In this document: positions 200 to 17,426 of the stretch, in pieces | How the letters are laid out: each line of letters begins with the position of its first letter | How positions within the stretch are numbered: the stretch's first letter is position 1 | Source: a virus | Lineage: Duplodnaviria > Heunggongvirae > Uroviricota > Caudoviricetes | Length of the DNA stretch: 20,163 bases | Reading direction: 5' to 3' (one strand) | IMG/VR virus record: IMGVR_UViG_2718218396_000005 | The notes under the pieces: model-generated | What the model was told of the DNA's origin: nothing | Database searches by the model: none | The model's input: the letters and a program-made list of their open reading frames with translations, nothing else | Translations under genes and position numbers: made by a program

Positions 200-253
200 T
201 GAACCGCCCCGGGAATCCTGGAGACTAAACTCCCTGAGAAAGAGGTAAACAGG

Positions 254-580
254 ATGACTAAAAATACACGTTTTTCCCCCGAGGTCCGTCAACGGGCAGT
301 CCGTATGGTTCTGGAAAGTCAGGGCGAATATGACTCACAATGGGCGGCAATTTGTTCCATTGCCCCAAAGATTGGCTGTACACCAGAGACTCTGCGTGTG
401 TGGGTTCGTCAGCATGAGCGGGATACCGGGGGCGGTGATGGTGGACTCACCACCGCTGAACGTCAGCGTCTGAAAGAGCTGGAACGTGAAAATCGTGAAC
501 TGCGCCGCAGTAACGATATCCTTCGCCAGGCTTCCGCTTATTTTGCGAAGGCGGAGTTCGACCGCCTCTGGAAAAAATAA
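254..580 (+). CDS. IS629-like transposase OrfA (HTH / leucine-zipper DNA-binding subunit)
   Basis: 108-aa ORF from the track. GGAG-type RBS (AGAGG at 241-245) upstream. A6 run at 572-577 just before the stop is the likely -1 frameshift window for making the OrfAB fusion. Confidence 0.85.
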
Positions 581-1467
581 TGCCGCTGCTGGATAAGCTG
601 CGTGAGCAGTACGGGGTCGGACCGGTATGCAGTGAACTGCATATTGCCCCGTCAACGTATTACCACTGTCAGCAACAGCGACATCATCCGGATAAACGCA
701 GTGCCCGTGCGCAGCGCGATGACTGGCTGAAGAGAGAGATACAGCGCGTATACGATGAAAATCATCAGGTGTACGGTGTGCGTAAAGTCTGGCGCCAGTT
801 GTTACGCGAAGGTATCAGGGTGGCCAGATGTACAGTGGCGCGCCTCATGGCGGTTATGGGACTTGCCGGTGTTCTCCGGGGTAAAAAGGTCCGTACTACC
901 GTCAGCCGGAAAGCCGTTTCCGCAGGCGACCGCGTAAACCGTCAGTTCGTGGCAGAACGTCCTGACCAGCTGTGGGTGGCTGATTTTACTTACGTCAGCA
1001 CATGGCAGGGCTTCGTCTATGTGGCGTTCATCATTGATGTGTTTTCCGGATGTATCGTGGGGTGGCGAGTCTCATCGTCTATGGAAACGACATTCGTGCT
1101 GGATGCACTGGAGCAGGCGTTGTGGGCCCGTCGGCCGTCCGGCACAGTCCATCACAGTGATAAAGGTTCTCAGTATGTATCACTGGCCTATACGGAGCGA
1201 CTAAAAGAAGCAAAACTGCTGGCATCAACAGGGAGTACAGGTGACTCGTATGACAACGCGATGGCGGAGAGCATCAATGGTCTTTACAAAGCGGAGGTAA
1301 TACACCGTAAGAGCTGGAAAAACCGTGCAGAAGTGGAACTGGCCACACTCACGTGGGTGGACTGGTATAACAATCGACGATTGCTGGGAAGGCTGGGTCA
1401 TATCCCTCCGGCAGAAGCAGAAAAAGCTTATTATGCTTCCATCAGAAACGATGATCTGGCAGCCTGA
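580..1467 (+). CDS. IS629-like transposase OrfB (DDE integrase-type catalytic subunit)
   Basis: 295-aa ORF in the -1 frame relative to orfA, overlapping its stop (ATAATG). Contains the D...D...E region expected of an IS3-family catalytic core (..WVADFTYV.., ..HHSDKGSQY.., ..DNAMAESINGLYK..). Confidence 0.85.
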   Translation: MPLLDKLREQYGVGPVCSELHIAPSTYYHCQQQRHHPDKRSARAQRDDWLKREIQRVYDENHQVYGVRKVWRQLLREGIRVARCTVARLMAVMGLAGVLRGKKVRTTVSRKAVSAGDRVNRQFVAERPDQLWVADFTYVSTWQGFVYVAFIIDVFSGCIVGWRVSSSMETTFVLDALEQALWARRPSGTVHHSDKGSQYVSLAYTERLKEAKLLASTGSTGDSYDNAMAESINGLYKAEVIHRKSWKNRAEVELATLTWVDWYNNRRLLGRLGHIPPAEAEKAYYASIRNDDLAA

Positions 1468-1509
1468 GTTCACAGATAAAACACTCTCCAGGAAAACCGG
1501 GGCGGTTCA

Positions 1510-3442: not shown

Positions 3443-3496
3443 TAAGTAATATGCAGGCGGCGCAGTGCGTCGCCTCTGACTGAAAGGAGTTTCCTG

Positions 3497-3862
3497 ATGA
3501 AAGAGACGAAAAACATCGATACCGAAAACACGGTAGTTACTGACACTGTGAAAGAAACCAGTGAGCGTGGTGTAAAACTTACCCAACCAATTGAGCGAGG
3601 CGGCGAAAAAATCACGTATGTGGAGATCACCGGGGCTATTGAGCAGGCTGGATCTCTGCGAGATTTGTCGCTGTCTGATGTGCTGAATCTGAAAGCGGAA
3701 TCCATGTTTACGCTGCTGTCACGCGTGACATCACCGCGACTGGATGAAGTGACGATCAAAAAAATGGCATCCCGTGACTTTATTCAGTTATGTGTGGTTG
3801 CCGTAAATTTTTTGAGCGGTGCGGACTCTGGCGGGAAGAACGAACAGGCGACGGAAGCCTGA
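3497..3862 (+). CDS. E: Tail assembly chaperone E (zero-frame product)
   Basis: 121-aa ORF with AAGGAG RBS at 3484-3489. Lies between the tube and tape measure genes, as in P2 (E, E+E') and lambda (G, GT). Confidence 0.8.
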   Translation: MKETKNIDTENTVVTDTVKETSERGVKLTQPIERGGEKITYVEITGAIEQAGSLRDLSLSDVLNLKAESMFTLLSRVTSPRLDEVTIKKMASRDFIQLCVVAVNFLSGADSGGKNEQATEA

Positions 3863-4026
3863 TCACGGTTGTGTGCTTTGAGCACATAGAAGACTTTGTG
3901 GCAGATATTGCCGTTATTTTTAACTGGTCGCCCGCCGAAATCTTCATGATGACGCCCGGCGAAGTGGTTAGCTGGCGTGAGCGGGCGGCACTTCGCAGCG
4001 GGAATGCAGACAATGAAGACTCTTGA
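3497..4026 (+). CDS. Tail assembly chaperone E+E' made by programmed -1 ribosomal frameshift at 3808-3814
   Basis: Zero-frame codons AAT TTT TTG place the heptamer T TTT TTG at 3808-3814. After a -1 slip the reading continues ERCGLWREERTGDGSLITVVCFEHIEDFVADIAVIFNWSPAEIFMMTPGEVVSWRERAALRSGNADNEDS to the stop at 4024-4026, which is the 78-aa track ORF 3790..4026. Confidence 0.75.
3808..3814 (+). promoter_or_regulatory. Slippery heptamer T_TTT_TTG for the E/E' -1 frameshift
   Basis: X XXY YYZ motif in the E zero frame, with the -1 frame open downstream for 70 codons. Confidence 0.7.
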
Positions 4027-6103
4027 TATCCGGGTCGCTTTCAGCGCCGTTGACAGGCTGACCCGACCTGCCGAAAACGCACGCCGCCTGATGGGGCAGT
4101 TTGGTGACTCCATCCAGCGAACGCAGGGGGCGATCAAAAATCTCGAGCGTCAGGCGCGATCATTTGAGCGCGCCCGCGACGCTGTCAGTAAAGCGGATGC
4201 TGGCATCGTGAAAGCACGACGCCAGCTTAACGCCCTTAATCAGTTACAACGCACGGGTACAGTGCTCAGCGAAAAACAACAAAAGCTGATGCAGCAGTTA
4301 AGCACCCGGCTTGAACGCCTGAATGAATCGCGCACACGGGAAATTCAGAAAATGAGGGAACTTGGCGGAGAGCTGAAACGCCACGGCATTTCCCTGACAG
4401 GCAGCGATAACACCATTCAGCAGGCCATCAGACGCACCGAACAATACAACAACCAGCTTGAACGCGAACGGCAGGCGCTTGCGCGTGTAACGCAGGCGCG
4501 TGAGCGGTATTCGCACGCGCAGGAAACCGCGGGAAAACTGAAAACAGGTGGTGCGCTGGCAATTGGTGCGGCAGCGGCGGGCGGCTATGCTGCCGGGCGT
4601 TTTTTGCAGCCTGCGATCGGGTTCGGCAAAGAGATGTCCCGCGTTCAGGCACTGACGCGAATCGACAAAAACAGCCCGCAGTTTAAGGCGCTGCGTGAGC
4701 AGGCGTTAAAACTTGCTGAAACACAGTTTACTGCGAGTGATGCCGCCAGTGGGCAGAGCTTTCTGGCAATGGCTGGTTTTACTCCGCAGGCCATTCAGGC
4801 CGCATTGCCCGGTGTTCTTAATATGGCGCTGGCAGGTGGCGTCGAACTCGGCGAGACGGCTGATATAGGCTCCAATATCCTCACACAGTTCAACCTGACA
4901 GCCGATCAAATGGACCGGGTGGGCGATACGCTGACAGCAGCATTTACCCGGACCAATACTGATTTACGCGCGCTGGGCGAAACCATGAAGTATACCGGTC
5001 CGGTTGCCGCAAAACTTGGTATCAGTCTTGAAGAAGCGGCGGCCATGGCCGGGATGCTTGCCAATAATGGTCTTCGCGGAAGCGATGCTGGCACGGCCAT
5101 GCGCGCAAGTCTGTCCCGCCTTGCATCACCGCCAAAAGCTGCGGCTGATGCACTGAAAGAGCTGGGGGTGTCAGTTGCTGAGGCCAGAGGCAAAATGCGC
5201 CCGATGGAGGATGTGCTGCTTGATCTCTATAAGGCGACACAAAAATACGGACAGGTGGACCAGGTCTCCTTCTTCAAGGACATCGCCGGAGAAGAGGCGT
5301 TCGTTGGTTTGCAGACGCTTGTTGCGGCGGCTGGTTCAGGAGAGCTGCAAAAACTGACCAGAGAATTGCAGGGGGCAAGGGGAGAGGCCGATCGCGTCGC
5401 AAAAGTAATGGCTGATAATCTTGATGGGGACCTGAAAAATCTCGACAGCGCATGGGAAGGTCTTCGTATTCGCATCAGTGATCTGGTTGACGGTCCGCTG
5501 CGTTCTGTCACGCAGTGGCTCACGCGGGTGCTTGAAAAAATCACCTCGCTGGCGCAGGCCCATCCGGTACTGACGCGCCAGCTACTGATAGCAGGCGGTG
5601 CGTTGCTGGCAATGACTGCAACGATTGGCTCGTTGTCGCTGGTTATTGGGGTGCTTTACGGGAAGCTGGCCACCCTGCGTCTTGGTTTTGACATTCTTAC
5701 CCGGTCAATGAATGTCGTCAGGGTGTTACCTGCGCTATGGGGAATGGTGACGGGTTCCGTTTCTTTACTGGGAGGCGTTATCGGGGCGTTGTTCAGTCCG
5801 GTTGGTCTTATCGTGGCTGCGCTTGCCGGAGCTGCCGTTCTTATCTGGAAATACTGGGATCCTATCAGGGCTTTCTTTGCCGGGGTGTTCAGCGGGATTA
5901 TGGAAAGGCTGACCCCGTTGCGCGACACCTTTGAACGGTTTGGCCCTGTTTTTGACGTAATCGGAAGCGGTTCAGCCAGGTGTTTAACTGGTTTAAATCG
6001 CTGCTGTCACCGATGGAGTCCAGCAAGGAAACGCTGGATAAATGTACCAGTGCTGGCGAGGTATTCGGTAACGTTCTTGGTGGTGCGTTACAGCTTGTTC
6101 TGA
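4013..6103 (+). CDS. T: Tail tape measure protein (P2 gpT family), N-terminal and central part, ending prematurely after an apparent frameshift near 5956-5980
   Basis: Long ORF straight after E/E'. Coiled-coil-rich N-terminal third, alanine/glycine-rich central part and hydrophobic segments are typical of tape measure proteins. ATG 4013 (MKTLDIRV) is preferred over the track's GTG 3977 because it overlaps the E' end. The last 45 codons (RCLTGLNRCCHRWSP...) look like out-of-frame junk. Confidence 0.75.
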   Translation: MKTLDIRVAFSAVDRLTRPAENARRLMGQFGDSIQRTQGAIKNLERQARSFERARDAVSKADAGIVKARRQLNALNQLQRTGTVLSEKQQKLMQQLSTRLERLNESRTREIQKMRELGGELKRHGISLTGSDNTIQQAIRRTEQYNNQLERERQALARVTQARERYSHAQETAGKLKTGGALAIGAAAAGGYAAGRFLQPAIGFGKEMSRVQALTRIDKNSPQFKALREQALKLAETQFTASDAASGQSFLAMAGFTPQAIQAALPGVLNMALAGGVELGETADIGSNILTQFNLTADQMDRVGDTLTAAFTRTNTDLRALGETMKYTGPVAAKLGISLEEAAAMAGMLANNGLRGSDAGTAMRASLSRLASPPKAAADALKELGVSVAEARGKMRPMEDVLLDLYKATQKYGQVDQVSFFKDIAGEEAFVGLQTLVAAAGSGELQKLTRELQGARGEADRVAKVMADNLDGDLKNLDSAWEGLRIRISDLVDGPLRSVTQWLTRVLEKITSLAQAHPVLTRQLLIAGGALLAMTATIGSLSLVIGVLYGKLATLRLGFDILTRSMNVVRVLPALWGMVTGSVSLLGGVIGALFSPVGLIVAALAGAAVLIWKYWDPIRAFFAGVFSGIMERLTPLRDTFERFGPVFDVIGSGSARCLTGLNRCCHRWSPARKRWINVPVLARYSVTFLVVRYSLF

Positions 6104-6816
6104 CGCCTGCAAAAATGTTGCTGGATACGCTGGCGTGGATACTTGAAAAACTCGGTGTGCTTCCGGATGAAGCGGAAAGGGCGCGCAAGAAAATCGAAGA
6201 CGCACAACGTGCGGCCATTCTTCAGGACAAGGTTGCTCTGTTTCAGGGAGACATTGCGAAAATCAATCCGCCGAAGTCTGCGGGAAATAGCAATGGCACC
6301 GGAGATGATAAACCCAAAGACAACAAACCTCTCACAGACAGCAATACCGGCACGCTACGCAGACTCAGCAAAATTGCTGATAACACAGGTAAGCTGGTTG
6401 ATGAGACAAAAAAACGCATTGGCCCCGGCGATATTGTCTTTAAGAACCTGCCCCGCGCACTTGCTGTTCGTGGGGAGTGGCAGGAGCGGAAGATTGCGCA
6501 GGTCAGTAAGCCTGCCCCCGCAATTAATATCACACCCGTGGTCCCGGCTCCGCTGCCTCCGGCGCTGGTCCCTGTTGTTGCGGCCAGCTCCCGCCCGGTG
6601 GTGGAGGCCATACGATCGCCAGTGGCATCAGTTCCTGCAACTTCCCGTAACCGGGAGCCTGTTGCCTCCGGATTTGGCGGTGAAATTCATGTTCATCTGC
6701 ATAACGTTGTTACGCAGAATCCCCGCGAACTGGCGAAACTGGTCGGCGAAATGGTCAGGGCAGAAATGGAACGGCGCGCCCGTGCCAGGCGTGGCAGTTT
6801 TTACGATAAAGATTGA
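5956..6816 (+). CDS. T: Tail tape measure protein, C-terminal part in the +1 frame (continuation of gene T after the frameshift)
   Basis: This frame opens after a stop at 5953-5955 and reads ..SQVFNWFKSLLSPMESSKETL... to a stop at 6814-6816 immediately before the U gene. The track starts this ORF at GTG 5980. Confidence 0.65.
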   Translation, partial: RNRKRFSQVFNWFKSLLSPMESSKETLDKCTSAGEVFGNVLGGALQLVLTPAKMLLDTLAWILEKLGVLPDEAERARKKIEDAQRAAILQDKVALFQGDIAKINPPKSAGNSNGTGDDKPKDNKPLTDSNTGTLRRLSKIADNTGKLVDETKKRIGPGDIVFKNLPRALAVRGEWQERKIAQVSKPAPAINITPVVPAPLPPALVPVVAASSRPVVEAIRSPVASVPATSRNREPVASGFGGEIHVHLHNVVTQNPRELAKLVGEMVRAEMERRARARRGSFYDKD

Positions 6817-6828
6817 GGAGTCATGGCC

Positions 6829-7317
6829 ATGATGATGATCTACGGCATGTTTGTTTTTGAGCTGCGCACGTTGCCGCATCAGCAGTTACAGCAAAACAAA
6901 AGCTGGCGACATGTGAAAAATGAACGCGTTAACCGTTCAGCAAGCTGGCAGTATATCGGTGCAGGTGATGATCGCATCGTTCTTTCTGGTGTTCTTTATC
7001 CTGAGATTACTGGTGGCGAAGTGTCGCTGTCGTTGTTGACCACGCAGGCATATACAGGACGTCCTTGGCCTTTGATTGATGGCGTCGGGCAGATTTACGG
7101 CATGTATGTCCTGACCGGAACGAATACGACCCGCTCCGAGTTTGATCGCTACGGTAAGGCGAAAAAGATAGAATTTTCACTGACTCTTGAACGCTGTGAT
7201 GAGGATTTGCGGGAGCGCCTGCAATCCTCATCGTTCAGCGATATGCTGTCCGGCTTCAAAGATAAGGTGACATCATCCCTTAATAGCGCGGCCAGCTCAG
7301 TTAAGGGGCTGCTCTGA
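6829..7317 (+). CDS. U: Tail protein U (P2 gpU family)
   Basis: ORF 6823..7317 in the track. ATG 6829 is preferred because GAGGAG at 6815-6820 is 8 nt upstream. N-terminus MMMIYGMFVFELRTLPHQQLQ resembles what I recall of gpU, and it directly follows the tape measure gene. Confidence 0.8.
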   Translation: MMMIYGMFVFELRTLPHQQLQQNKSWRHVKNERVNRSASWQYIGAGDDRIVLSGVLYPEITGGEVSLSLLTTQAYTGRPWPLIDGVGQIYGMYVLTGTNTTRSEFDRYGKAKKIEFSLTLERCDEDLRERLQSSSFSDMLSGFKDKVTSSLNSAASSVKGLL

Positions 7318-7473
7318 TTTAACGTATGTCGCCAATTTCCTGATGAAGGTGACTGGCGACTTGCTGTTGTATGTCCTTCTCAGAAAATTGTTTTTGAATA
7401 ACAAATAACAGGATTTTATAATCTCTTAACCTTATAACATGTGTGGTCTGAAATAATAATTAAGGAGATTATC

Positions 7474-8046
7474 GTGCTATCTTACTTAATGGCAATTCAC
7501 TTTGTTTTATTTGGAAACTCTACTAATTTAAAAAACTTCTGGAAACATGAAGTAATTCGGCGGAAACGTATGGATATCTGGAGGCTTTTAAGAGAGAAAA
7601 AACAGCGTAACCGGAATTTCCTTTTCTGGTGGCGGTTGGCTAACGAAATGTATATTAATGGTAATAAATTACATAAGAAAGCAGCCAAAAAGTTAAACAG
7701 TAAAATAATTAACAAGTTTGGTTGTGAAATAGGATTGGGCGCAAATATTGGAAAAGGGTTGACAATTCCCCATCATGCTGGAATTGTTGTTCATTTTGCT
7801 GTTGATGCGGGTGAAAATCTGGTATTACGACAGAATACTACCATTGGACAGATAGATGGTGATATGCCTAGTTCAAGAGTAAAAATTGGTAGTAACGTTG
7901 ATATCGGAGCTAATTGTTGCATCATTGGATTATCACGTAAAATTGGGGATAATGTAAAAATAGGTGCAATGTCTTTTATAAATAAAGATATACCATCAAA
8001 CTGCACATATATAACTAAAAAGAGTGGTGTTGTATTGTATAAATAG
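7474..8046 (+). CDS. Hexapeptide-repeat (left-handed beta-helix) acyltransferase, serine O-acetyltransferase-like; low-GC cargo gene
   Basis: Strong RBS TAAGGAG at 7461-7467 with GTG 7474 at 6 nt (ATG 7489 is an alternative; the track's GTG 7441 would put the RBS inside the gene). Hexapeptide repeats IGLGANIGKGLTI / HHAGIVVHF / IGSNVDIGANCCIIG / IGDNVKIGAMSFI, and an N-terminal helical segment resembling CysE/WcaB-type acetyltransferases. Visibly AT-rich relative to the flanking tail genes. Confidence 0.75.
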   Translation: MLSYLMAIHFVLFGNSTNLKNFWKHEVIRRKRMDIWRLLREKKQRNRNFLFWWRLANEMYINGNKLHKKAAKKLNSKIINKFGCEIGLGANIGKGLTIPHHAGIVVHFAVDAGENLVLRQNTTIGQIDGDMPSSRVKIGSNVDIGANCCIIGLSRKIGDNVKIGAMSFINKDIPSNCTYITKKSGVVLYK

Positions 8047-8055
8047 AGTACATAA

Positions 8056-8090
8056 AGCCATCGATATTTCTGTCGATGGCTTTTTCTTTT
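8056..8090. terminator. Rho-independent terminator between the convergent acetyltransferase and tfa genes
   Basis: Perfect 8-bp stem GCCATCGA (8057-8064) / TCGATGGC (8073-8080) with an 8-nt loop, followed by TTTTTCTTTT (8081-8090). It starts 10 nt after the acetyltransferase stop and abuts the tfa stop codon. Confidence 0.65.
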
Positions 8091-8622
8091 TATTGTGGGG
8101 CGACTGGCCACTCAACATCCGCTGCTACTGTTGTATCAACACGATTCAACAATACCCGATATGTCTTCCATGCAGCCAGTAACGATGCCTCTTCCTCCGT
8201 CGCAATATCCAAATCTACGGCATCCTGAAGTGGCGCAATATGCTCACTGGCTACCTGCATCAGGCTGTTTTTTGTTTCTTCTGCCTCCCGTACCCGAAAC
8301 AGTTTTTCTGCTTCTGCATCTTTCGCCCAGGATGTGCCGTTCCACTTCTGACACTCTCCATCCGGCGACAACCAGGTAACATTTTCCGGTAACGGACCGA
8401 GTTCAGAAATAAATAACGCGTCGCCGGAAGCCACGTCATAAACCGTTTTACCCCGATGATCTTCAACGAGATGCCACGATGCCTCATTACTGTTGAAAAC
8501 AGCCACGAAGCCAGCCGGAATATCTGGCGGTGCAATATCGGTACTGTTTGCTGGCAGACCTGTATGAGGCGGAATGTATGCGTCACCTTCACCAATAAAT
8601 TCATTAGTTCCGGCCAGCAGAT
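8090..8622 (-). pseudogene. tfa: Tail fibre assembly protein (Tfa / P2 gpG family), 5' end removed by the IS629 copy at 8623
   Basis: Track ORF 8090..8506 ([57 protein letters not shown]...). The same frame stays open upstream to the IS boundary, reading [39 protein letters not shown] before the GTG. This matches my memory of E. coli Tfa proteins, which have about 15 more residues at the N-terminus. Confidence 0.7.
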
Positions 8623-9679
8623 TGAACCGCCCCGGGAATCCTGGAGACTAAACTCCCTGAGAAAGAGGTAAACAGGATGACTAAAAATACACGTTTTTCC
8701 CCCGAGGTCCGTCAACGGGCAGTCCGTATGGTTCTGGAAAGTCAGGGCGAATATGACTCACAATGGGCGGCAATTCGTTCCATTGCCCCAAAGATTGGCT
8801 GTACACCAGAGACTCTGCGTGTGTGGGTTCGTCAGCATGAGCGGGATACCGGGGGCGGTGATGGTGGACTCACCACCGCTGAACGTCAGCGTCTGAAAGA
8901 GCTGGAACGTGAAAATCGTGAACTGCGCCGCAGTAACGATATCCTTCGCCAGGCTTCCGCTTATTTTGCGAAGGCGGAGTTCGACCGCCTCTGGAAAAAA
9001 TAATGCCGCTGCTGGATAAGCTGCGTGAGCAGTACGGGGTCGGACCGGTATGCAGTGAACTGCATATTGCCCCGTCAACGTATTACCACTGTCAGCAACA
9101 GCGACATCATCCGGATAAACGCAGTGCCCGTGCGCAGCGCGATGACTGGCTGAAGAGAGAGATACAGCGCGTATACGATGAAAATCATCAGGTGTACGGT
9201 GTGCGTAAAGTCTGGCGCCAGTTGTTACGCGAAGGTATCAGGGTGGCCAGATGTACAGTGGCGCGCCTCATGGCGGTTATGGGACTTGCCGGTGTTCTCC
9301 GGGGTAAAAAGGTCCGTACTACCGTCAGCCGGAAAGCCGTTTCCGCAGGCGACCGCGTAAACCGTCAGTTCGTGGCAGAACGTCCTGACCAGCTGTGGGT
9401 GGCTGATTTTACTTACGTCAGCACATGGCAGGGCTTCGTCTATGTGGCGTTCATCATTGATGTGTTTTCCGGATGTATCGTGGGGTGGCGAGTCTCATCG
9501 TCTATGGAAACGACATTCGTGCTGGATGCACTGGAGCAGGCGTTGTGGGCCCGTCGGCCGTCCGGCACAGTCCATCACAGTGATAAAGGTTCTCAGTATG
9601 TATCACTGGCCTATACGGAGCGACTAAAAGAAGCAAAACTGCTGGCATCAACAGGGAGTACAGGTGACTCGTATGACAA
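8623..9679 (+). mobile_element. IS629-like element, second copy, truncated at the 3' end (first 1057 of 1310 bp); no right inverted repeat and no target duplication
   Basis: Colinear with copy 1 from the left end TGAACCGCCCCGG (8623) through position 9679, with one mismatch seen in the translation (copy 1 T353 vs copy 2 C8776; OrfA Cys vs Arg). From 9680 the sequence is unrelated and AT-rich. Confidence 0.8.
8677..9003 (+). CDS. IS629-like transposase OrfA (copy 2)
   Basis: 108-aa ORF identical to copy 1 OrfA except C->R at residue 34. Confidence 0.8.
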
Positions 9680-9692
9680 TGTATTTTATTAG
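9003..9692 (+). pseudogene. IS629-like transposase OrfB, truncated (about 225 of 295 codons); the ORF reads through the deletion junction
   Basis: Identical to copy 1 OrfB through ..STGDSYDN, then 3 junction-derived codons (VFY) and a stop. It lacks the C-terminal part including the E of the DDE region, so this copy cannot supply its own catalytic subunit. Confidence 0.8.
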
Positions 9693-9711
9693 TTCACATA
9701 CAATTATCAGA

Positions 9712-10026
9712 TTATTCTGGGAATAAGGTCTGAATATTCTTTTTTATTTTATAAAAATTGCATTCAACTCCGCTAGGCTGATTAGCCTGGTATGTTTCCT
9801 TGATGCTAACGGTATTGAAGGGGAGGTTGTCCTCTGGCCATTCGGCCATCCAGTAGGCAAATGCTGGGTTGCGCTTTATGAGTGCTAGCCCAGCCAGAAA
9901 GGCCGCGCGTTGCGCGCGGCTGCGTTCGGAGGCTGGCAGGCTATCGAGGTAATTGCACGCCTCCTGTTCACTCTTGACGGCGGCGGGCTTCAGATAGAAA
10001 CTTATCCGTCTGGTTGGTGTCGTCAT
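9712..10026 (-). CDS. parR: ParR-like ribbon-helix-helix centromere-binding protein (type II partition adaptor)
   Basis: 104-aa ORF just downstream of parM. N-terminal region ISFYLKPAAVKSEQEACNYLDSLPASERSRAQRAAFLAGLAL parallels R1 ParR as I recall it (IAFKLNPDV.....DTLDSIPQGERSRLNRAALTAGLAL). It ends soon after a ..LFPE motif, so it is shorter than R1 ParR. Confidence 0.7.
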   Translation of the reverse strand: MTTPTRRISFYLKPAAVKSEQEACNYLDSLPASERSRAQRAAFLAGLALIKRNPAFAYWMAEWPEDNLPFNTVSIKETYQANQPSGVECNFYKIKKNIQTLFPE

Positions 10027-10030
10027 TGGT

Positions 10031-10990
10031 TTACTCCTTGTTCATTGCGTACAACCCATTAACCAGAGCAAACTGTGGCACCCCGTCCGCGATGAAAGTC
10101 GCATTAACTCCGCAGGCTTCGCGGATAGCGGTTGCCACAATCTCCGCCCCGCCACCGACAACCATCACCCGCCCGTAACCCGAAAAAACCGCCAGCGCGC
10201 GGATCACGCGTTGTTTCAGTGTTTCTTCCTTTTCACGAATAACCGCCATCAGGCTGGCGTAATGCGCGTCATTGTGGATGTGCTGGCGCAGCCAGGCTTC
10301 ATCATGGCGATGTTCGATAATGGTATTGGCGATGTGGTGACTGGTGCGCATACCGTTAGTGGCCATCACCGACAGTACGGCATCGGCCATCAGAGAAACG
10401 CCTACGTGTGGATCGCAAAACACCTGGCTGATACCTGCCAGTTGCCCCTGAACCTTTGCCACATCCAGCGTGGTTCCGCCCAAATCCACAATCAGCAGGG
10501 ATTCAAACGGACTCATGTCAGCCAGTGCCTTAAAGCCAGCAGGAATGGATTCAGGCATAACCCGTACGTTACGGATAGTGAATGCTTCGCCGTTCTGGTA
10601 CTCCACCGGGCGCATGACGTTCGCTTTTTTGCGGTTGATGTTGGCCATGTCCGGCTGTGCGTTTGTATCGAAATACTCGCTCAGTGGCAGGGTGACAACC
10701 ACATCCACTTCCTGTGGTGTGATGCCTGATTTGACCAGCGCGTGATGAATGGCAATTACATTCACATCGCTGTACTGGTATTGCGTGTCGGTCGTCTGGA
10801 CAAAGCGATCGCTGACCGGATCAAAACCATAGCGCACGCCATCAAGCATGTAGTTCGCGGGCTGCGTGCCACCGAATGGCGCAGACCATTCCGACTTGAA
10901 GCTGTTCGGGCTGATGGCGTTGCGGCGTTCGCCGTTCTCAGTCCATGCCAGCTTGATGTTGGTGGAGCCGTCGTCGATACAAATTTTCAT
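10031..10990 (-). CDS. parM: ParM/StbA-like actin-fold ATPase (type II plasmid partition motor)
   Basis: 319-aa ORF. Blocks IDDGSTNIKL, ISPNSFK, YSDVNV..HHAL, MPESIPAG, DLGGTTLD, GVSL, GGGAE and LVNGLY line up along the whole length with R1 ParM as I recall it. Confidence 0.8.
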   Translation of the reverse strand: MKICIDDGSTNIKLAWTENGERRNAISPNSFKSEWSAPFGGTQPANYMLDGVRYGFDPVSDRFVQTTDTQYQYSDVNVIAIHHALVKSGITPQEVDVVVTLPLSEYFDTNAQPDMANINRKKANVMRPVEYQNGEAFTIRNVRVMPESIPAGFKALADMSPFESLLIVDLGGTTLDVAKVQGQLAGISQVFCDPHVGVSLMADAVLSVMATNGMRTSHHIANTIIEHRHDEAWLRQHIHNDAHYASLMAVIREKEETLKQRVIRALAVFSGYGRVMVVGGGAEIVATAIREACGVNATFIADGVPQFALVNGLYAMNKE

Positions 10991-11132
10991 GTCGCTTTTC
11001 CTTATGTTGATTAATTAATCGGTTACAGGATTTTTAAATCCCGCTTTTGCCTGTTTTGTGCGCGCTTCATATATCGCGGCGCGTTTTTTGCTCATTTACG
11101 GGATTTGTGAGTCCCGTTTCTGTCTGTTTTTT
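10991..11132 (-). promoter_or_regulatory. Candidate parC-like centromere/promoter region upstream of parM, with two imperfect direct repeats of about 34 bp
   Basis: ACAGGATTTTTAAATCCCGCTTTTGCCTGTTTTGTG (11027-11060) and ACGGGATTTGTGAGTCCCGTTTCTGTCTGTTTTTTG (11099-11132) are about 80% identical, and each holds a short internal inverted repeat. The second copy lies inside the 3' end of gene A. Confidence 0.3.
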
Positions 11133-13889
11133 GTTTCCACTGGTCAGGCCACCCCGCAGCAGGTCTGCTTTGCGGCTGGCGCGTTCAGTGGTTTCACTGA
11201 TTCTCTGTGCGTGCTCTGCGTCGCGGATGGCGCGCAGCATGTCAGAAAGCACGGTAACGGGTGTTTTCATGGTGTTCTGGTCCTGCTGAAGTGTGGATGC
11301 CAGGCGTGCGGCGGCTTCAGGGTCTGATGCCCCCAGCTGTGCCAGATAGCTGGCGACCGGGTTATGGCGGATCTCCGTGCTGCTTACGCCATGATTACGG
11401 CTCAGGCGCTGCCAGAGCTGCGTGATTCGGCTGTCCGGGCGGGTATCCGGTTTGCGTACAATTTCAAATCCCTGCGGTGCAATGATGCTGCCGTCAACGT
11501 ACAGACTGCCGCCCCGTAACAGGTGCTGCATCTGTTGTTCACCGATATGCAGGCCGAGAGATTCAGCAGACTCCCGCCATTCTTTAGCGAGTAATTCGTG
11601 GTTATCAGGCAAAGGCCGCTGCTGTTTGCGGCTCTGTGTCCAGCTCTGCATTTCATCACTGCTGTTTTTTGCCTGTTTGTCACGAAGCGAACGCATCAGC
11701 GCCCGGCGTTCGTGCCGTTTCAGTGAGCGCATCCATTCGTTCACGTCAACGCCGTCAGGAAGCTGCGGCCACGGTGCTGGCCGTTCTTCCGGCTGTTCTG
11801 TCCCGTTGTTGTCCGTTTCCTGTACACGGGGACAGTTATTGCCACGAGTCCAAGGGGCGGCAGGGCCGCCCTGAAGGTCAAAACCATTTTCGCGGGCGCT
11901 GTCTTCTACTCCCGGTTTACGTCTTACCAGCTTCCAGTTATCCGGGTGCGTGCACACACGGGAGGATTCCCCGATGAGTGGTGACCAGATCCCGTAAATC
12001 TGTACGCTCTGTTCGCCGTAATCGTTCAGCTCATCTGCGAGGTCGTAGGCGGTGCGAATCAGGTAGTCCTTGCGTGGAACAAGTACGCCTCCCTGTTTCT
12101 CAATGTAGGTGGTAAAACATCCGGCATCAGCGGCAGCAAGAACCGCATCCATTGCGTCATCCTTCAGCCGTTGCGGGCCTTCCGGGTTGCGTGCCATCTG
12201 GCTGGCAAGGCGACGCAGTTCACGCCACACCTGACGGGAGGGGATGCCAAAGAACTGGAACTGGCGGACCCGGTGAAGGCGCGCCCAGCCAATGGCGCGT
12301 TCCACGCTCTCGGTCATTGATTTTCCGGTTTCGTGGTCAACGCGTGGTTTGCCTGTTTTCGGGTCGATGCCATCCACGGCGCGGCTGTCCAGGTTTTTTC
12401 CGATGTAGGTGGCGATGTAGCTGGTTGGCGTGCCTTTTGAGCCGTCGACATACTCCGCCTTAAAGCGCGGAGTAATATCATCGCCCAGCTCGTGACGATC
12501 TTCCTGAATGGCAATATCGCGGGTGTGGGACACAATGGTGTCGATTTCTTCCGGATGAGCAAAGACCATCATATGCCAGTGCACGGTGCCGTCATGGTGA
12601 GGCTCCACCGTGCGGATGCCATACCAGCGCAGGCCGTCGCGGTTCAGTTTCTTGCGGACCGCCGCAAAAAACGTGTTAACCAGGTAATCGCTGGAGTCGC
12701 GCATGGTGGCCCCGTTCCATTTGGGATTCGGATGACCGTTCTCTGTTGTAGCGTGGTATTTTGACGGGCAGGTGACAGTCAGAAACACCGCTTTGTCGCC
12801 ACGGGCTTCGGCCAGAAGTTCCAGCCCCTTCATGGTGGCCATCATTTCTGCCTTACGGTGAACCGGGTTACTTACTCCCGCGTAATACACTGTCTCGAGA
12901 TCAATCGTGAACCCGTCTTCGTTTTCCAGCATGAAACTTTTCAGGAAATCGCGTGTTTTCTCGCGCTGTGCGCGAAACTCGCTTAACGCGTCCTGGCTCA
13001 GATAGGGCGATGTTTTTCTGGAAACCAGACAGGCGGCGCGGAGTTGTTCTTCTCTCCACTCGCAACGTAACAGCCACAGTTTGCGTTTCCACCATTCCGC
13101 ACAGGTCAGGCGAAGGATTGCGCCCGGCAGCAGCTCCGTGTCCGGTTCGTTCCTCCGGTCTTTGTCTGTTGTCAGTGCGTCATAATGTGGAGGCATGGCG
13201 TGCAGGTGTAACGCCATGCGGGCCAGCATCTGATACGCCTTCAGCGTTACATCCATGGTCAGTTCGCCATCGGTCGCGCCAAAGCCATCGCAGAGTTTTT
13301 CGAAGGTGCTGCTGAACATCGCCGCCGTCATGGTGGCCAGCGTCTGTATCTGGTGTTTGTTGAGCTGCGGCAGGTAAAGCAAATCGTCCAGGCGTTCGCG
13401 TCCGGCAAGGGAGCGATAACCCTGTGTCAGCCAGCGGTGATCGGTGCGCTCCAGACGTTCGAATATTTTGCGCAGGTTTCCGCGCGCGTAGCGTTCAGCC
13501 TGCCAGCTCTTTTTGCCTTTCTGACGATCGGCTTCCTGTTTTTTGCGCAGGAAGGAGAGGTGGCGAATAAGCGGATCGCGCAGATAGGACGGCAGCAGGC
13601 GCAGCGAGGCCATGGCTTCATCCACCGCACCGCGTGCCTGTTTTCTGGCGTCTCCTGCCAGTGTGATGGTTTTGTCCTGTTTTTCCTGTGCGTCCAGGCT
13701 TTTATTAATCAGGTTGCCCAGCGGCGTTGCGGAGAACGCCGCATCAGCCATTTCCTGGCGGCGCTCGTTCTCTACCCGGTAGGCATCCAGCCAGGAGGAA
13801 AGCGCGGATTCAGGAGCGGGGATCCCCGTTCCTTCACGCCCCACTGCGTGGCGCGGTTGTTGCCAGTCCCTGATGTACTCTGCCGTCAT
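11067..13889 (-). CDS. A: Replication initiation endonuclease (P2 gpA / phiX174 A superfamily rolling-circle initiator)
   Basis: 940-aa ORF with an HUH-type motif (GTVHWHMMVFAH) and a paired-tyrosine motif (SYIATYIGKN) resembling the phiX174 A active site YVAKYVNK. It sits at the end of the early operon as in P2. Confidence 0.8.
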   Translation of the reverse strand: MTAEYIRDWQQPRHAVGREGTGIPAPESALSSWLDAYRVENERRQEMADAAFSATPLGNLINKSLDAQEKQDKTITLAGDARKQARGAVDEAMASLRLLPSYLRDPLIRHLSFLRKKQEADRQKGKKSWQAERYARGNLRKIFERLERTDHRWLTQGYRSLAGRERLDDLLYLPQLNKHQIQTLATMTAAMFSSTFEKLCDGFGATDGELTMDVTLKAYQMLARMALHLHAMPPHYDALTTDKDRRNEPDTELLPGAILRLTCAEWWKRKLWLLRCEWREEQLRAACLVSRKTSPYLSQDALSEFRAQREKTRDFLKSFMLENEDGFTIDLETVYYAGVSNPVHRKAEMMATMKGLELLAEARGDKAVFLTVTCPSKYHATTENGHPNPKWNGATMRDSSDYLVNTFFAAVRKKLNRDGLRWYGIRTVEPHHDGTVHWHMMVFAHPEEIDTIVSHTRDIAIQEDRHELGDDITPRFKAEYVDGSKGTPTSYIATYIGKNLDSRAVDGIDPKTGKPRVDHETGKSMTESVERAIGWARLHRVRQFQFFGIPSRQVWRELRRLASQMARNPEGPQRLKDDAMDAVLAAADAGCFTTYIEKQGGVLVPRKDYLIRTAYDLADELNDYGEQSVQIYGIWSPLIGESSRVCTHPDNWKLVRRKPGVEDSARENGFDLQGGPAAPWTRGNNCPRVQETDNNGTEQPEERPAPWPQLPDGVDVNEWMRSLKRHERRALMRSLRDKQAKNSSDEMQSWTQSRKQQRPLPDNHELLAKEWRESAESLGLHIGEQQMQHLLRGGSLYVDGSIIAPQGFEIVRKPDTRPDSRITQLWQRLSRNHGVSSTEIRHNPVASYLAQLGASDPEAAARLASTLQQDQNTMKTPVTVLSDMLRAIRDAEHAQRISETTERASRKADLLRGGLTSGNKKQTETGLTNPVNEQKTRRDI

Positions 13890-13895
13890 AGTGAT

Positions 13896-14261
13896 TTACT
13901 TCGTCATGCCATTCAGGGTGTCGCGGCAGGCTGTAGCCAGCCGCTGAATTTCCAGCACGGTGTCTTCTGTGTCGGCATGGCGATGTGTGATGCGGATGCT
14001 GTCGGCAATCACATCGACGATTGCAGAGGATGGGCGCTGGTAAATGCCAATAACGGACGGGGTGCCACCTTCAATGCGGTAAAGCCTGTAATTTCCCTCG
14101 TGGCTGTCAATCATGTAGCGACCATCAATAACAATCTTTCCGTCAGCGAGCTGCGGTACAGGCAGGGATTTCAGGTACATGTCATAACGATCACGCACGC
14201 GAGCGGCAAGATCACGTTCTGTGTTGAGCAGGTATTCAAGAAAGTCGTTGGCGAGAATCAT
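13896..14261 (-). CDS. Hypothetical early-operon protein (121 aa) immediately upstream of A
   Basis: ORF in the track whose stop is 6 nt before the A start. No family recognised. Confidence 0.55.
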   Translation of the reverse strand: MILANDFLEYLLNTERDLAARVRDRYDMYLKSLPVPQLADGKIVIDGRYMIDSHEGNYRLYRIEGGTPSVIGIYQRPSSAIVDVIADSIRITHRHADTEDTVLEIQRLATACRDTLNGMTK

Positions 14262-14333
14262 TGCGGCAATCCTCTTGTTACAGATGTGCGAAGGCCTCCC
14301 GCCGCAAGGTGCAGGAAAGGCCCGGAACAGGAA

Positions 14334-14564
14334 TTAATGGAGTTTGTTTTGCTGCTGGATGAGCTGTTGAAACTCGTGCAGATCATCCGCCAGATAGCTG
14401 AAAACAGAGGCGGAATAAATGTTTGATAGTGCGTGGCTGCGCTCATGCAGCATATTGATGTGCATGATTTGCGCGACGCGTGATGCGCGGGAAAGTCTGC
14501 GGTTGATTTCAGTCTGGATGTGACGACGCTCCGCGATAGCGCGGTGCTGTTTGCGGTCTGCCAT
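14334..14564 (-). CDS. Hypothetical small basic protein (76 aa)
   Basis: ORF in the track with an AAGAGG-type RBS (reverse complement of about 14572-14577) 7 nt upstream of the ATG. Basic and helical in character. Confidence 0.5.
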   Translation of the reverse strand: MADRKQHRAIAERRHIQTEINRRLSRASRVAQIMHINMLHERSHALSNIYSASVFSYLADDLHEFQQLIQQQNKLH

Positions 14565-14744
14565 GGTGTGGCCTCTTTGCTCGGTGATAGAAATAACTCA
14601 CCATCCAGAGTTGAGAATCTCGGGGTGGCGAGACGTACAGGGTTCTCAACACCGGAGAGCAAAGAATCCGGCCCGACCGAAGTCGGCCCCGTACGCCCCG
14701 CCATAATTCTGACGCGAAAAAGACGTGGCAATACAGTACGCACA

Positions 14745-14765
14745 AAAAAACCGCTAGCGCGGTTA
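14745..14765 (-). terminator. Rho-independent terminator inside the early operon (minus strand)
   Basis: On the minus strand, stem AACCGC / GCGGTT with loop GCTA followed by a run of T (plus strand A run at 14745-14751). It lies about 120 nt downstream of the 99-aa gene stop. Confidence 0.45.
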
Positions 14766-14886
14766 TGCGCTTTGCTCTGTATCGGGTTGAGAATCCCGGC
14801 ACCCGTTTTATGAGGTGCAGCGGAAATGTAACCTGACCGATTGCGGCATGGCAAGCGGTTTTTTTGTGTGTGCATGTTCTGGTTTC

Positions 14887-15186
14887 TTACTGGTTCAGAA
14901 AAAAATCAAAAACGTTATCGATGCGTTGCAGCAGCTCTTGCTGCATTGCTTCCGGCGTTTCCGGTTCGCCAGGTGCCCCCAGCGTTGCGCAGAAATCAGC
15001 GATTTCATGATGGAGCGTGAGGCGAATGGCAGGAGCCGTGGTTCTGGCGTGCTCCAGCTGATCCAGCAGTGCCAGCACAGCAGACGGCGAGAGCATTGCG
15101 CGAAATGCCAGTAATTTTTGAGGCGTTGCCATTCGTTGCAGGGCAAATGCCAGTTCGCGTAGCTTCTGGTGGTTGATGGTGCTCAT
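14887..15186 (-). CDS. Hypothetical early-operon protein (99 aa)
   Basis: ORF in the track; its start overlaps the stop of the upstream 88-aa gene (ATGA-type overlap at 15183-15186). Confidence 0.6.
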   Translation of the reverse strand: MSTINHQKLRELAFALQRMATPQKLLAFRAMLSPSAVLALLDQLEHARTTAPAIRLTLHHEIADFCATLGAPGEPETPEAMQQELLQRIDNVFDFFLNQ

Positions 15187-15449
15187 GCTCTGGCTTCCTT
15201 CAGTAGCTGGTTAAACATGTGAGTAAGTGGATTGCTACACCCGAACGGCATCGGGTTTACGTGGTAAGAAGCCTGGCCTCCTGTTTTGCGAGCGCGACCA
15301 CCTGTGCTGCGGTTTGTTCTGATGACTAAGCCGCCGCGCCAAAGTCGGCGTAACTCAGCATTAATGGCTGTGGTTGGGGTATTCAGTGCTGCGGCGATCT
15401 CTCCGCCGCTACACCCCGGATGAGTAGCGATGTAGTCCAGAATGGTCAT
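15183..15449 (-). CDS. Small winged-helix DNA-binding protein (88 aa)
   Basis: ORF in the track with a helix-turn-helix-like segment GCSGGEIAAALNTPTTAINAELRRLWRGGLV. Translationally coupled to its neighbours. Confidence 0.6.
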   Translation of the reverse strand: MTILDYIATHPGCSGGEIAAALNTPTTAINAELRRLWRGGLVIRTNRSTGGRARKTGGQASYHVNPMPFGCSNPLTHMFNQLLKEARA

Positions 15450-15649
15450 CTGCGTGGCTCCTGTACCTGTCGGATAAGATTTACTCGCGCCACGTTGGTG
15501 GCGCAGAAGTAAGTGCCGTCAGTGAGGTAGATGTGGTGTGCATCCTTTTCCGAACGATGTTTGTCGATAGTGGTAATCAGGCGTTCGTCGACCTCGTATT
15601 CGCGCCCTCTGGAGGTAAAGCGAACGACGGGAAAATGCTTAATTGCCAT
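15446..15649 (-). CDS. Hypothetical early-operon protein (67 aa)
   Basis: ORF in the track; its stop overlaps the next gene's start. Confidence 0.5.
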   Translation of the reverse strand: MAIKHFPVVRFTSRGREYEVDERLITTIDKHRSEKDAHHIYLTDGTYFCATNVARVNLIRQVQEPRR

Positions 15650-15672
15650 TGCGCCCCCTTTGTCCAGTAACC

Positions 15673-16089
15673 CTATGCGTTAAATACGGCACGTTGCGCG
15701 TCATCAATGAATACAGCTTGAGAGCGTTCTATCAGGCGGAGATTTGTCAGAAGCTCTGACTCTTTTGTGTGGTAAGGCGTTATCAGGTATTTGCCGTGCA
15801 GTTCGGCAATAATGGTGTATTGCAGCATCATTGCTGAACCAAGAATATAAATGCAGCGTCCAATGCTGGACGGATTCATGGCTGCAACTGTTGACTGTGT
15901 TTTAAGAGTGTCGATTTCTTTGCTCTGTTCCTCAATAACTTTGGCTGCTTCAGGGGTGGCTATTGCGATGGTCAGTGCGTAAAGCGCTGCCATATGTTGA
16001 TTATCTTTCTGGGCTGCCCTGGACAGTTTGTCTTGCTCTGCTGACACTATTTTTAATGTATTGATAATATTTTTTTCTTTTGCGTTCAT
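15673..16089 (-). CDS. Hypothetical protein (138 aa), AT-rich gene
   Basis: ORF in the track with a GGAG RBS (reverse complement of about 16097-16100). Lower GC than neighbours. Confidence 0.6.
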   Translation of the reverse strand: MNAKEKNIINTLKIVSAEQDKLSRAAQKDNQHMAALYALTIAIATPEAAKVIEEQSKEIDTLKTQSTVAAMNPSSIGRCIYILGSAMMLQYTIIAELHGKYLITPYHTKESELLTNLRLIERSQAVFIDDAQRAVFNA

Positions 16090-16181
16090 TTTATATCTCC
16101 GTTATTTACGTGTGCGAATACCTCCGCGAATGCGGATAGTTTTCAGGTTTTCGGGTTTAATCTGGTGTTCTGTTTAAGCTG

Positions 16182-16534: not shown

Positions 16535-16545
16535 CGCAACGCCCT

Positions 16546-16824: not shown

Positions 16825-16834
16825 AAAGCACCTG

Positions 16835-17185: not shown

Positions 17186-17206
17186 GATGGTGCTCTGTTC
17201 ATTGTT

Positions 17207-17410: not shown

Positions 17411-17426
17411 CCCACTAGCCTCCTGA

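Follow-up and report, generated by a model that had tools for sequence, protein, structure and literature searches.

A deletion scar beside a truncated IS629 in the defective P2-like prophage Sp13 of Escherichia coli O157:H7

How did a P2-like prophage come to have its tail-fibre assembly gene tfa separated from its partition and replication genes by an incomplete insertion sequence, and what was lost in between? In the window, i.e., the whole stretch of 20,163 nucleotides analyzed here, a piece of IS629 (IS3 family, also named IS1203) occupies the interval in which the virion and lysis genes of such a phage would be expected (Table 1). The original prediction, made from this stretch of DNA by itself, attributed the gap to an IS-mediated adjacent deletion or to recombination with another IS copy. 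By comparing the locus with full-length IS629, related phages and complete E. coli genomes, we find a deletion scar that is real but ordinary.

A P88-type prophage between leuZ and yecA

Sequence comparison showed the window to be 100% identical to E. coli O157:H7 strain 7784 (chromosome NZ_CP018247.1), while positions 1510–20163 match prophage Sp13 of strain Sakai with 99.957% identity over 18.65 kb, in a region labelled ‘prophage Sp13, P2-like phage’ in the Sakai reference record. The two prophages share the site between leuZ and yecA, the gene order and a series of scars comprising the 1057-bp partial IS629, the truncated tfa, the frameshifted T and a gene D truncated by IS30. In the Sakai record, the same IS629 piece is annotated as a 1057-bp repeat_region, ‘IS1203 Family: IS3 partial’. 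By location, sequence and scars, the window prophage belongs to Sp13/CP-933T, the latter being the equivalent of Sp13 in EDL933 (PMC3338595); strain Xuzhou21 is without Sp13 (PMC3338595). Strain 7784 differs from Sakai in carrying one additional complete IS629, flanked by the duplication CTC, in the remnant of gene D. This copy is found in no other genome among the 25 best matches listed, and Sakai is without it. In the next 24 O157:H7 genomes of that list, the region measures 18,849 bp as compared to 20,163 in the window. Since Sp13/CP-933T is a catalogued defective prophage with its partial IS annotated in the Sakai record, the finding as such is already known.

The prophage is a defective member of the Peduoviridae of the P88/Xuanwuvirus type. 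Like Escherichia phage P88 (Peduoviridae, Xuanwuvirus) and the relatives 520873 and vB_EcoM-569R5, it combines a backbone of int, C and cox followed by A, parM and parR with a divergent tail cluster (D and FI to U) that lies on the other strand from H–tfa, and DNA identity to this group amounts to 93–97% in the shared parts. Gene A, the int/C/cox early region and the sheath, tube and tape-measure tail genes are collinear with P88. An inversion of the tail cluster, considered on the grounds that FI–U lie on the strand opposite to tfa and A, an abnormal arrangement for P2, was rejected, as P88-type phages have the same layout. P88 differs from the window prophage in being complete (35.8 kb), in carrying an invertase and alternative fibre/tfa cassettes in place of an acetyltransferase gene, and in the cargo between parR and the portal gene, which is unlike that of the window prophage lineage. 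The acetyltransferase cargo gene, placed between tail gene U and tfa, has a weak Pfam Hexapep match below the curated cutoff. The indel in T was placed by comparison with PV15-279, the relative L004 and P88; T is intact in 493/89.

Of the full P2-like virion and lysis set, Q, P, O, N, M, L, holin, endolysin, V, W, J, I and H are all absent from the window and its flanks. The flanks consist of IS30 and a tRNA-Leu gene on one side and yecA on the other, and thus hold no adjoining block that would restore a complete prophage. Other P2-type head genes are probably absent from strain 7784 as well, judging from Sakai (PMC2669165) and from the rarity of O157:H7 among capsid-gene matches.

The IS629 fragment, the joint and the undeleted prophage

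The fragment matches the complete IS629 copy of the window at 1056 of 1057 bases (IS positions 1–1057, sole mismatch at 8776), and this identity collapses exactly at 9679/9680. It retains the left inverted repeat TGAACCGCCCCGGGAATCCTGGAGA (8623–8647), orfA, the frameshift region and most of orfB, with the Pfam domains HTH_Tnp_1, HTH_21 and rve. What distinguishes it from intact IS629/IS1203 is the loss of the right 253 bp, including the right inverted repeat (the only right repeat within the window lies at 1485–1509) and the last 70 orfB codons. Nor is the fragment flanked by a target duplication, its left flank reading ...CAGCAGAT and its right flank TGTATTTT. It is therefore nearly identical to the 1310-bp reference but without two terminal repeats, a complete DDE transposase or a 3–4 bp duplication; the predicted 1057-bp copy lacking its right end and duplication is confirmed by the alignment. 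The truncated OrfB ends in DSYDN followed by VFY and a stop codon, where the native protein reads DSYDNAMAESINGLYK. It is devoid of the AES...K motif, which we take to be the site of the catalytic glutamate in IS3-family enzymes, and terminates four codons short of this predicted residue. Because the right repeat is missing and OrfB ends before the predicted catalytic glutamate, the IS629 piece is an immobile fragment and not a functional member of its family.

Table 1. Features of the window at and around the IS629 fragment
Feature	Position	Strand	Evidence or remark
Tail gene D remnant	8-199 and 1510-1587	-	split by complete IS629
Complete IS629, 1310 bp, 3-bp target duplication CTC	200..1509	+	in remnant of tail gene D
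Tape-measure gene T, inactivated by 1-nt deletion near 5969	4013..6816	+	PGAP ‘frameshifted’
Hexapeptide-repeat serine O-acetyltransferase cargo gene, AT-rich	7474..8046	+	PGAP; 34-39% GC
Tail-fibre assembly gene tfa, 3' part only (codons 17-192)	8090..8622	-	Pfam Caudo_TAP, E 5e-40
IS629 (IS3 family, = IS1203) fragment, 1057/1310 bp	8623..9679	+	alignment to full copy and Pfam
orfA of IS629 fragment, intact	8677-9003	+	translation and Pfam
orfB of IS629 fragment, cut after residue 225/295	9003-9679, read-through to stop 9690-9692	+	
Deletion joint	9679..9680	.	three-way comparison: full IS629, window, undeleted PV15-279 prophage
AT-rich 3' flank of parR, 32 bp	9680..9711	.	22% GC
parR-type partition adaptor gene (stbB-like)	9712..10026	-	Pfam Plasmid_stab_B, E 8e-29
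parM actin-like partition ATPase gene	10031..10990	-	Pfam StbA_N E 2e-82, ParM C-terminal domain E 4e-69
Palindrome-containing 38-nt repeat, 2 copies 73 nt apart	11023..11133	.	repeat D1, inverted repeat I1
Replication endonuclease gene A, 940 aa	11067..13889	-	Pfam Phage_GPA, E 2e-131

At its left end, the fragment interrupts tfa, whose start is gone: junction alignment and translation reveal the loss of the first 16 codons (46 nt), MDFRMSEQPRTIKIYN, relative to the full 579-nt gene present in the relative L004, PV15-279 and 493/89. The tfa gene, named in the original prediction as one boundary of the gap, is thus present but is itself cut. On the right, IS629 breaks off at its position 1057 and phage sequence resumes 32 bp 3' of parR, with the base A at 9679 assignable to either parent, i.e., a microhomology of 1 nt. 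An abrupt switch to AT-rich DNA had been noted at this point; the switch is genuine, but the DNA behind it is not unrelated, as it comprises only 32 bp of native parR flank that continue straight into phage sequence in the relative L003, PV15-279 and 493/89. Between the fragment and gene A, Pfam and annotation find only parR and parM, as predicted. With an actin-like ParM and a ParR adaptor, both with Pfam scores far above cutoffs, these genes are those of a partition system of type II (ParMRC). The 38-nt palindromic repeats upstream of parM, which overlap the 3' end of gene A and are conserved in P88 and three other relatives, are a candidate parC centromere or operator.

The early-branching O157 strains 493/89 and PV15-279 carry the same prophage at the same leuZ–yecA site, with no IS629 in tfa. 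PV15-279 is 99.90% identical to window positions 4507–8623 and 99.95% identical to 9679–20163, and holds 16,398 extra bp between these two matched flanks; comparison with 493/89 gives the same boundaries, including those of the joint. Instead of this block, the window has IS629 positions 1–1057. It extends from the tfa 5' end, a macro-domain gene and H through I, J, W, V, S, R, the lysis genes, X, L, M, N, O and P to the portal gene Q and two cargo genes. The predicted loss of the whole head, packaging, lysis, baseplate and tail-fibre block therefore holds base for base against both strains, whereas the normal interval, put at about 17 kb, is 16,398 bp in the true progenitor and approximately 14.7–16.5 kb in more distant relatives. 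The undeleted breakpoint occurs at 100% identity in PV15-279, 493/89, LSU61 and F3113.

Several lines of evidence tie the undeleted prophage to that of the window. The protein accessions for integrase, ParR (WP_000211280.1 in 7784, PV15-279 and 493/89), U and the acetyltransferase are identical, the IS30 in gene D is shared, and the flanks are 99.9% identical. Differences lie in 493/89 and PV15-279 retaining the morphogenesis, lysis and cargo block with full-length tfa, and in features of the individual strains: sorbitol-fermenting 493/89, in which every morphogenesis gene is annotated intact, also keeps an intact T, the C-terminal part of D, ogr and hok, while β-glucuronidase-positive PV15-279 has separately lost FI, FII, E and part of T in an IS-linked event. 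With five differences over 10.5 kb and the shared IS30 in D, an independent later acquisition by these strains is hard to reconcile. The comparisons show the progenitor, almost whole, at leuZ–yecA in early-branching O157 strains, and place the deletion on the branch leading to typical O157:H7.

Origin of the scar

We consider it highly probable that the region represents the central scar of Sp13/CP-933T, formed by insertion of IS629 into tfa and a subsequent single illegitimate deletion of 16.4 kb. In the first step, IS629 would have inserted after codon 16 of tfa to create the normal left-end junction at 8622/8623. The second step would be one illegitimate deletion. It would have begun inside orfB at IS position 1058, taken the rest of the IS with its right end and a further 16.4 kb of phage DNA, and stopped 32 bp past parR, the ends being sealed with only 1 nt of homology. 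The underlying chemistry was neither an ordinary IS-end reaction nor homologous recombination. Either the ends were joined by generic illegitimate recombination that needs no homology, or an IS629 transposition was aborted, with a break linked to the transposase or to IEE (the O157 IS-excision enhancer), or a template switch in copy-out replication, that stopped inside the element. At neither of its ends does the deleted segment coincide with an IS terminus. In the same prophage of the same lineage, other small deletions lie away from IS ends, i.e., a 3.3-kb deletion, a 46-bp deletion inside IS30, a 6-bp deletion and the T frameshift, which point to general deletional decay. We also considered whether the left IS30 repeats the pattern of a truncated IS beside a deletion and rejected this, as the 46-bp deletion is internal to IS30 and the 3.3-kb deletion is located about 80 bp from it, joined at short homology.

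The abortive form of the second step is a possibility that we hold only tentatively. Here, the IS629 transposase, with or without IEE, would initiate at one IS end, and a template switch or resection from a break at the right end would remove the IS tail and the neighbouring 16.4 kb in a single step. Such an event would be in line with an endpoint inside the IS and a deletion that extends outward through its right end, with IEE-dependent deletions beside IS629 that range from a few nucleotides to more than 40 kb (PMC9943667), and with a strand-switch model (bioRxiv 10.1101/2023.06.07.543989) that predicts joints of very short homology able to intrude into the IS. On the other hand, in the products described, the IS has as a rule gone entirely or one of its termini forms the joint, and IEE-type end joining, as described, relies on microhomology, while only 1 nt is shared here. 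The deletions elsewhere in the prophage that do not coincide with IS ends also indicate that a generic process is enough for them. A transposase pseudo-end at the internal breakpoint was rejected, since TGACAACGCG is by eye unlike the terminus of IS629, TGAACCGCCC, and the break does not fall at a TG. From the joint itself, a transposition-linked break and an unrelated one cannot be distinguished.

The routes proposed originally, i.e., adjacent deletion by intramolecular transposition of IS629 or loop-out between two directly repeated copies, fare much worse and are very unlikely. In their favour stand the abundance and activity of IS629 in this lineage, the ample record of IS629-linked deletions in O157 (PMC9943667) and a second, complete copy in the same orientation within the window. 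However, either route leaves a whole IS, whereas this one has lost 253 bp and its right repeat. An adjacent deletion would be expected to place the terminus of an intact IS at the joint, which instead lies at internal position 1057 with 1 nt of homology on the parR side. Recombination between two copies would call for an intact hybrid IS and an ancestral second IS at the far breakpoint; the fragment is no such hybrid, and the progenitor prophage in PV15-279 and 493/89 is without IS629 at the parR-side breakpoint. The second copy of the window lies on the wrong side of the scar and is missing from Sakai and the other O157:H7 genomes listed. Judged by these features, classical IS-end chemistry did not produce the scar.

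A mosaic, in which a tail half and a replication half from different phages recombined at the IS629 fragment, is hardly credible: P2-like and lambdoid phages share tfa sequences, with about three matching places per O157 genome, but 493/89 and PV15-279 carry, at this very chromosomal site, one contiguous prophage to which each half is 99.9% identical, with collinear order and orientation and a shared IS30 insertion in gene D. Although IS copies are classic misassembly sites, a collapsed or misjoined repeat can be dismissed for practical purposes, both junctions being present in 264 independently assembled complete genomes that include the annotated Sakai reference.

The distribution of the scar follows from the same survey. 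Of 5426 complete E. coli genomes, 264 carry the left junction and 264 the right, and with these equal counts no intermediate carrying a full IS629 in tfa together with the morphogenesis genes exists among the 5426. For the reciprocal product, a check put forward with the original prediction, we searched with a chimera that joins the right 253 bp of IS629 to the 5' end of tfa and the 3' end of H; none of the 5426 genomes covers at least 80% of it, and the reciprocal junction is absent from all of them. In line with fixation, Rump et al. (2011) list an IS629 site on Sp13 that is common to all four reference O157:H7 genomes (PMC3271280).

Residual activity and significance

The prophage cannot build heads, baseplates or fibres, nor can it lyse the cell. 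It had been anticipated that mitomycin C would yield no particles; the element indeed cannot encode a virion, but Asadulghani et al. (2009) reported DNase-protected Sp13 DNA at a low level, attributed to help from other prophages (PMC2669165). In the same study, Sp13 was found to excise and its circular form to be amplified about 30-fold after mitomycin C (PMC2669165), so that both the lack of morphogenesis genes and the residual excision and replication of Sp13 have been published since 2009 (PMC2669165). The retention of int, C, cox, an epsilon-like derepressor, gene A and parMR fits this published excision and replication.

A more far-reaching reading would be that the deletion did more than kill the phage and left a newly formed satellite, i.e., a capsid-less, excisable, self-replicating replicon partitioned by ParMR, and would separately interpret the joint as the footprint of an abortive, IEE-assisted copy-out. 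We regard this as improbable. If true, the satellite would have been kept in all typical O157:H7 via amplification and carriage in the particles of unrelated lambdoid prophages. As it stands, the importance of the locus extends little beyond bookkeeping. The present analysis adds a definition of the deletion at base-pair level against a complete progenitor (16,398 bp of phage DNA and 253 bp of IS629, with a joint of 1-nt homology). The scar provides a clean natural example of stepwise prophage decay and might be of use as a marker of the lineage or for testing models of IS-associated deletion.

In P2 and 186, the packaging site cos is located next to Q. Because of this position, cos would have been lost with the deleted block, and the prophage is presumably unable to cut it. 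A 19-mer of P2 cos, used as query with up to four substitutions, was not found in the window or in the relatives. As a separate observation, a conserved non-coding stretch of 456 bp lies beside the portal gene inside the deleted block.

Prophage identity and the undeleted progenitor

The stretch matches the chromosome of the O157 strain E. coli 7784, isolated from cattle in the UK, at 100% identity, and near-identical copies are found in 265 complete genomes. The prophage is placed between yecA and an IS30 adjoining a tRNA-Leu/Cys/Gly cluster, and the flanking annotation of the locus holds no morphogenesis genes just outside the window. The Sakai reference annotates the same stretch as "prophage Sp13, P2-like phage" (99.957% identity over 1510-20163), with a repeat_region "IS1203 Family: IS3 partial" whose length is exactly 1057 bp, and the truncated-IS629 deletion feature as a whole is already catalogued. 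CP-933T of EDL933 is equivalent to Sp13, which is wholly absent from Xuzhou21 (PMC3338595).

In an ungapped comparison within the window, 8623-9679 corresponds to positions 1-1057 of the intact IS629 (1310 bp) at 200-1509; the two differ only at 8776, and identity ends abruptly, exactly at 9679/9680. No right repeat follows the fragment and no duplication flanks it, in contrast to the CTC on both sides of the complete copy. The truncated OrfB ends DSYDN/VFY-stop, whereas the native protein goes on AMAESINGLYK; judged by E-x6-K, the IS3-family DDE enzyme signature, the predicted catalytic glutamate is missing. With this residue lost and the right repeat absent, the fragment is immobile. Since the comparison, the repeats and the Pfam gene calls agree, the original prediction's observation of a 1057-bp IS629 fragment lacking its right end and target duplication is correct.

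Features of the prophage and of the block missing from it (window positions unless a locus is named; L007, PV15-279 prophage; L008, 493/89 prophage)
Feature	Coordinates	Strand	Assignment or content
T	4013-6816		frameshifted
Acetyltransferase cargo region	7318-8089		hexapeptide-repeat serine O-acetyltransferase gene; 34-39% GC
Terminator-like hairpin, strong	8054-8083		3' of acetyltransferase gene
tfa	8090-8620	minus	Pfam Caudo_TAP, E 5e-40
IS629 left inverted repeat	8623		in fragment
IS629 orfA	in fragment		Pfam HTH_Tnp_1
IS629 orfB, shortened	in fragment		Pfam HTH_21 and rve
parR	9712-10026		Pfam Plasmid_stab_B, E 8e-29
parM	10031-10990		Pfam StbA_N, E 2e-82; ParM C-terminal domain, E 4e-69
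38-nt repeats	11023-11060, 11096-11133		73 nt apart
Gene A	11067-13889		Pfam Phage_GPA, E 2e-131
Derepression protein gene	14334-14564		P4 epsilon-like; early region
Macro-domain gene	L007 10598-11500; L008 27779-28681		between H and tfa
Missing block, tfa to R	PV15-279		first 46 nt of tfa; macro-domain gene; H, I, J, W, V, S, R
Missing block, lysis part	PV15-279		lysC, DUF2570 (LysB-position) gene, endolysin, holin
Missing block, X to cargo genes	PV15-279		X, L, M, N, O, P, Q; two cargo genes

A P2-family capsid gene search found O157:H7 strain PV15-279, with a match at the Sp13 position. There, too, a prophage lies between leuZ and yecA; it shares identical protein accessions with the window prophage for integrase, ParR, U and acetyltransferase, has no IS629 in tfa, and matches 4507-8623 at 99.90% and 9679-20163 at 99.95% identity (5 differences in 10,485 bp). 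These two matches are separated by 16,398 bp in PV15-279. In sorbitol-fermenting 493/89 the block begins and ends at the same points (L008 reverse complement 12268-28665, 16,398 bp), and the prophage is almost complete, with T intact and an IS30 in gene D as its sole lesion. The macro-domain gene, in an unusual cargo position, went with the deletion; P88 and an O111:H8 relative lack it. In PV15-279, a partial IS30 and an IS1203 copy stand in place of FI, FII, E and the T 5' part (L007 4436-8737). This IS-linked lesion is independent of the window's deletion, so inactivation of the shared prophage took different routes in the two O157 lineages.

Junctions and mechanism of the deletion

The left junction reads ...CCGGCCAGCAGAT/TATAAATTTT in the progenitor and ...CCGGCCAGCAGAT/TGAACCGCC in the window, which has the form of an ordinary IS629 left-end insertion after tfa codon 16; the tfa peptide missing from the window is MDFRMSEQPRTIKIYN. 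At the right junction, ...GTATGACAA/CGCGATGG of IS629 and ...GTGTTGGTA/TGTATTTT of the progenitor are represented in the window by ...GTATGACAA/TGTATTTT, with homology of one base (A) only. The 32 bp at 9680-9711 (22% GC) belong to the phage itself, as the 3' flank of parR. A GC-rich hairpin, GGCACCCTGTTGCAAGGGTGCC (L007 26903-26924), lies between parR and a convergent cargo gene in the progenitor, and its end is 18 nt from the right breakpoint, on the deleted side. The hairpin probably serves as a bidirectional terminator; any part in positioning the break is speculative.

In the simplest history, IS629 would have inserted into tfa, and one illegitimate deletion would then have taken 253 bp of the element and 16,398 bp of phage DNA. 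We can only infer this order, because junction counts among 5426 complete genomes revealed no intermediate carrying IS629 in tfa without the deletion. For the second step we lean towards generic illegitimate recombination. A transposition-coupled event, triggered by IS629 transposase or the O157 IS-excision enhancer (IEE), is a tentative alternative: the IEE system is reported to make deletions of up to >40 kb beside IS629 (PMC9943667), and a strand switch during copy-out replication could, in a model, leave a partial IS (bioRxiv 10.1101/2023.06.07.543989), yet several other lesions in the same prophage and lineage lie away from IS ends. The original prediction that a deletion marked by the truncated IS629 took the morphogenesis block is borne out by the progenitor, but its proposed mechanisms, adjacent deletion by intramolecular transposition or crossover between two IS copies, are ruled out by the junctions: both leave a whole IS, whereas this IS629 is incomplete, the deleted segment has an IS terminus at neither end, and the progenitor (PV15-279, 493/89) has no IS629 at the far, parR-side breakpoint. 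The reciprocal product was not recovered: a chimeric query, in which the 253 bp missing from the IS629 right end were joined to the tfa 5' end and the H 3' end, was covered to 80% or more by none of 5426 complete genomes; this is expected, because an excised deletion product is lost.

Distribution and residual activity

The undeleted parR-side breakpoint occurs at 100% identity in PV15-279, 493/89, LSU61 and F3113, the first three being beta-glucuronidase-positive, sorbitol-fermenting or otherwise atypical early-branching O157 (PMC6256406, PMC3271280). Both deletion junctions co-occur in 264 of 5426 complete genomes. Together, these distributions place fixation of the deletion on the branch to typical O157:H7, in agreement with the IS629 site on Sp13 common to all four reference O157:H7 genomes (Rump et al. 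2011, PMC3271280).

Judged from gene content, the head, packaging, lysis, baseplate and fibre genes are all gone from the prophage. By position, cos was probably lost too: it adjoins Q in P2 and 186, and the deleted block includes a conserved 456-bp non-coding stretch adjoining the portal gene. A putative P2 cos 19-mer, with up to 4 substitutions allowed, had no match in the window or relatives. The sheath, tube and U genes remain, stranded beside the frameshifted T and an 89-codon D stub. Nevertheless, the Sp13-type element is not inert: mitomycin C induces its transcription, it excises, with the circular form up ~30-fold, and low-level DNase-protected Sp13 DNA was recovered, which the authors ascribed to complementation by other prophages (Asadulghani et al. 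2009, PMC2669165). The same study noted that Sakai has no P2-like element other than Sp13. The expectation that the prophage cannot make particles thus applies to virions of its own making, not to protected DNA. The epsilon-like derepression gene may account for the unusual mitomycin C inducibility of P2-like Sp13 (Asadulghani et al. 2009, PMC2669165).

Other lesions and comparison with P88-type phages

At the prophage left end, typical O157:H7 has lost hok, ogr, a YecA-family gene and the C-terminal part of D to a 3.3-kb deletion, with a joint at short TTAACG-type homology ~80 bp from IS30 (L001 6700-6960, just left of the window, versus L008); the same comparison revealed a 46-bp deletion inside this IS30 and a 6-bp deletion. 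T carries a 1-nt deletion at 5969-5972 (GCGGGATC to GCGGTTC) that shifts its frame in both the window and Sakai, T being intact in 493/89, PV15-279, P88 and the O111:H8 relative. The complete IS629, within the D remnant and flanked by its 3-bp target duplication (197-199, 1510-1512), is missing from Sakai and 24 other O157:H7 genomes among the matches listed; it therefore looks like a recent insertion and may be specific to strain 7784.

Among P2-like phages, the P88 group (Xuanwuvirus) matches the replication half of the window at 93-96% identity. In P88, int, C and cox lead to gene A, parM and parR and then cargo genes; Q and P follow on one strand, then O, N, M, L, X, lysis genes, R, S, V, W, J, I, H and tfa; beyond tfa, an invertase region precedes U, T, E, FII and FI on the opposite strand, with D divergent. 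An inversion relative to P2 was considered for the window's strand layout and rejected, the layout being collinear with these phages. The acetyltransferase gene, between U and tfa, occupies the site of the DNA invertase and alternative fibre cassettes in P88; the acetyltransferase-tfa pair is also found in the unrelated large phages JL22 and vB_EcoM-Ro157c2YLVW. The two 38-nt repeats, immediately upstream of parM and overlapping the gene A end, each contain a palindrome (AAACGGGAyT..AATCCCGTAA) and are candidates for parC or an operator. They are kept in P88-group phages, and five substitutions in the window's lineage weaken the palindrome of the parM-proximal copy.
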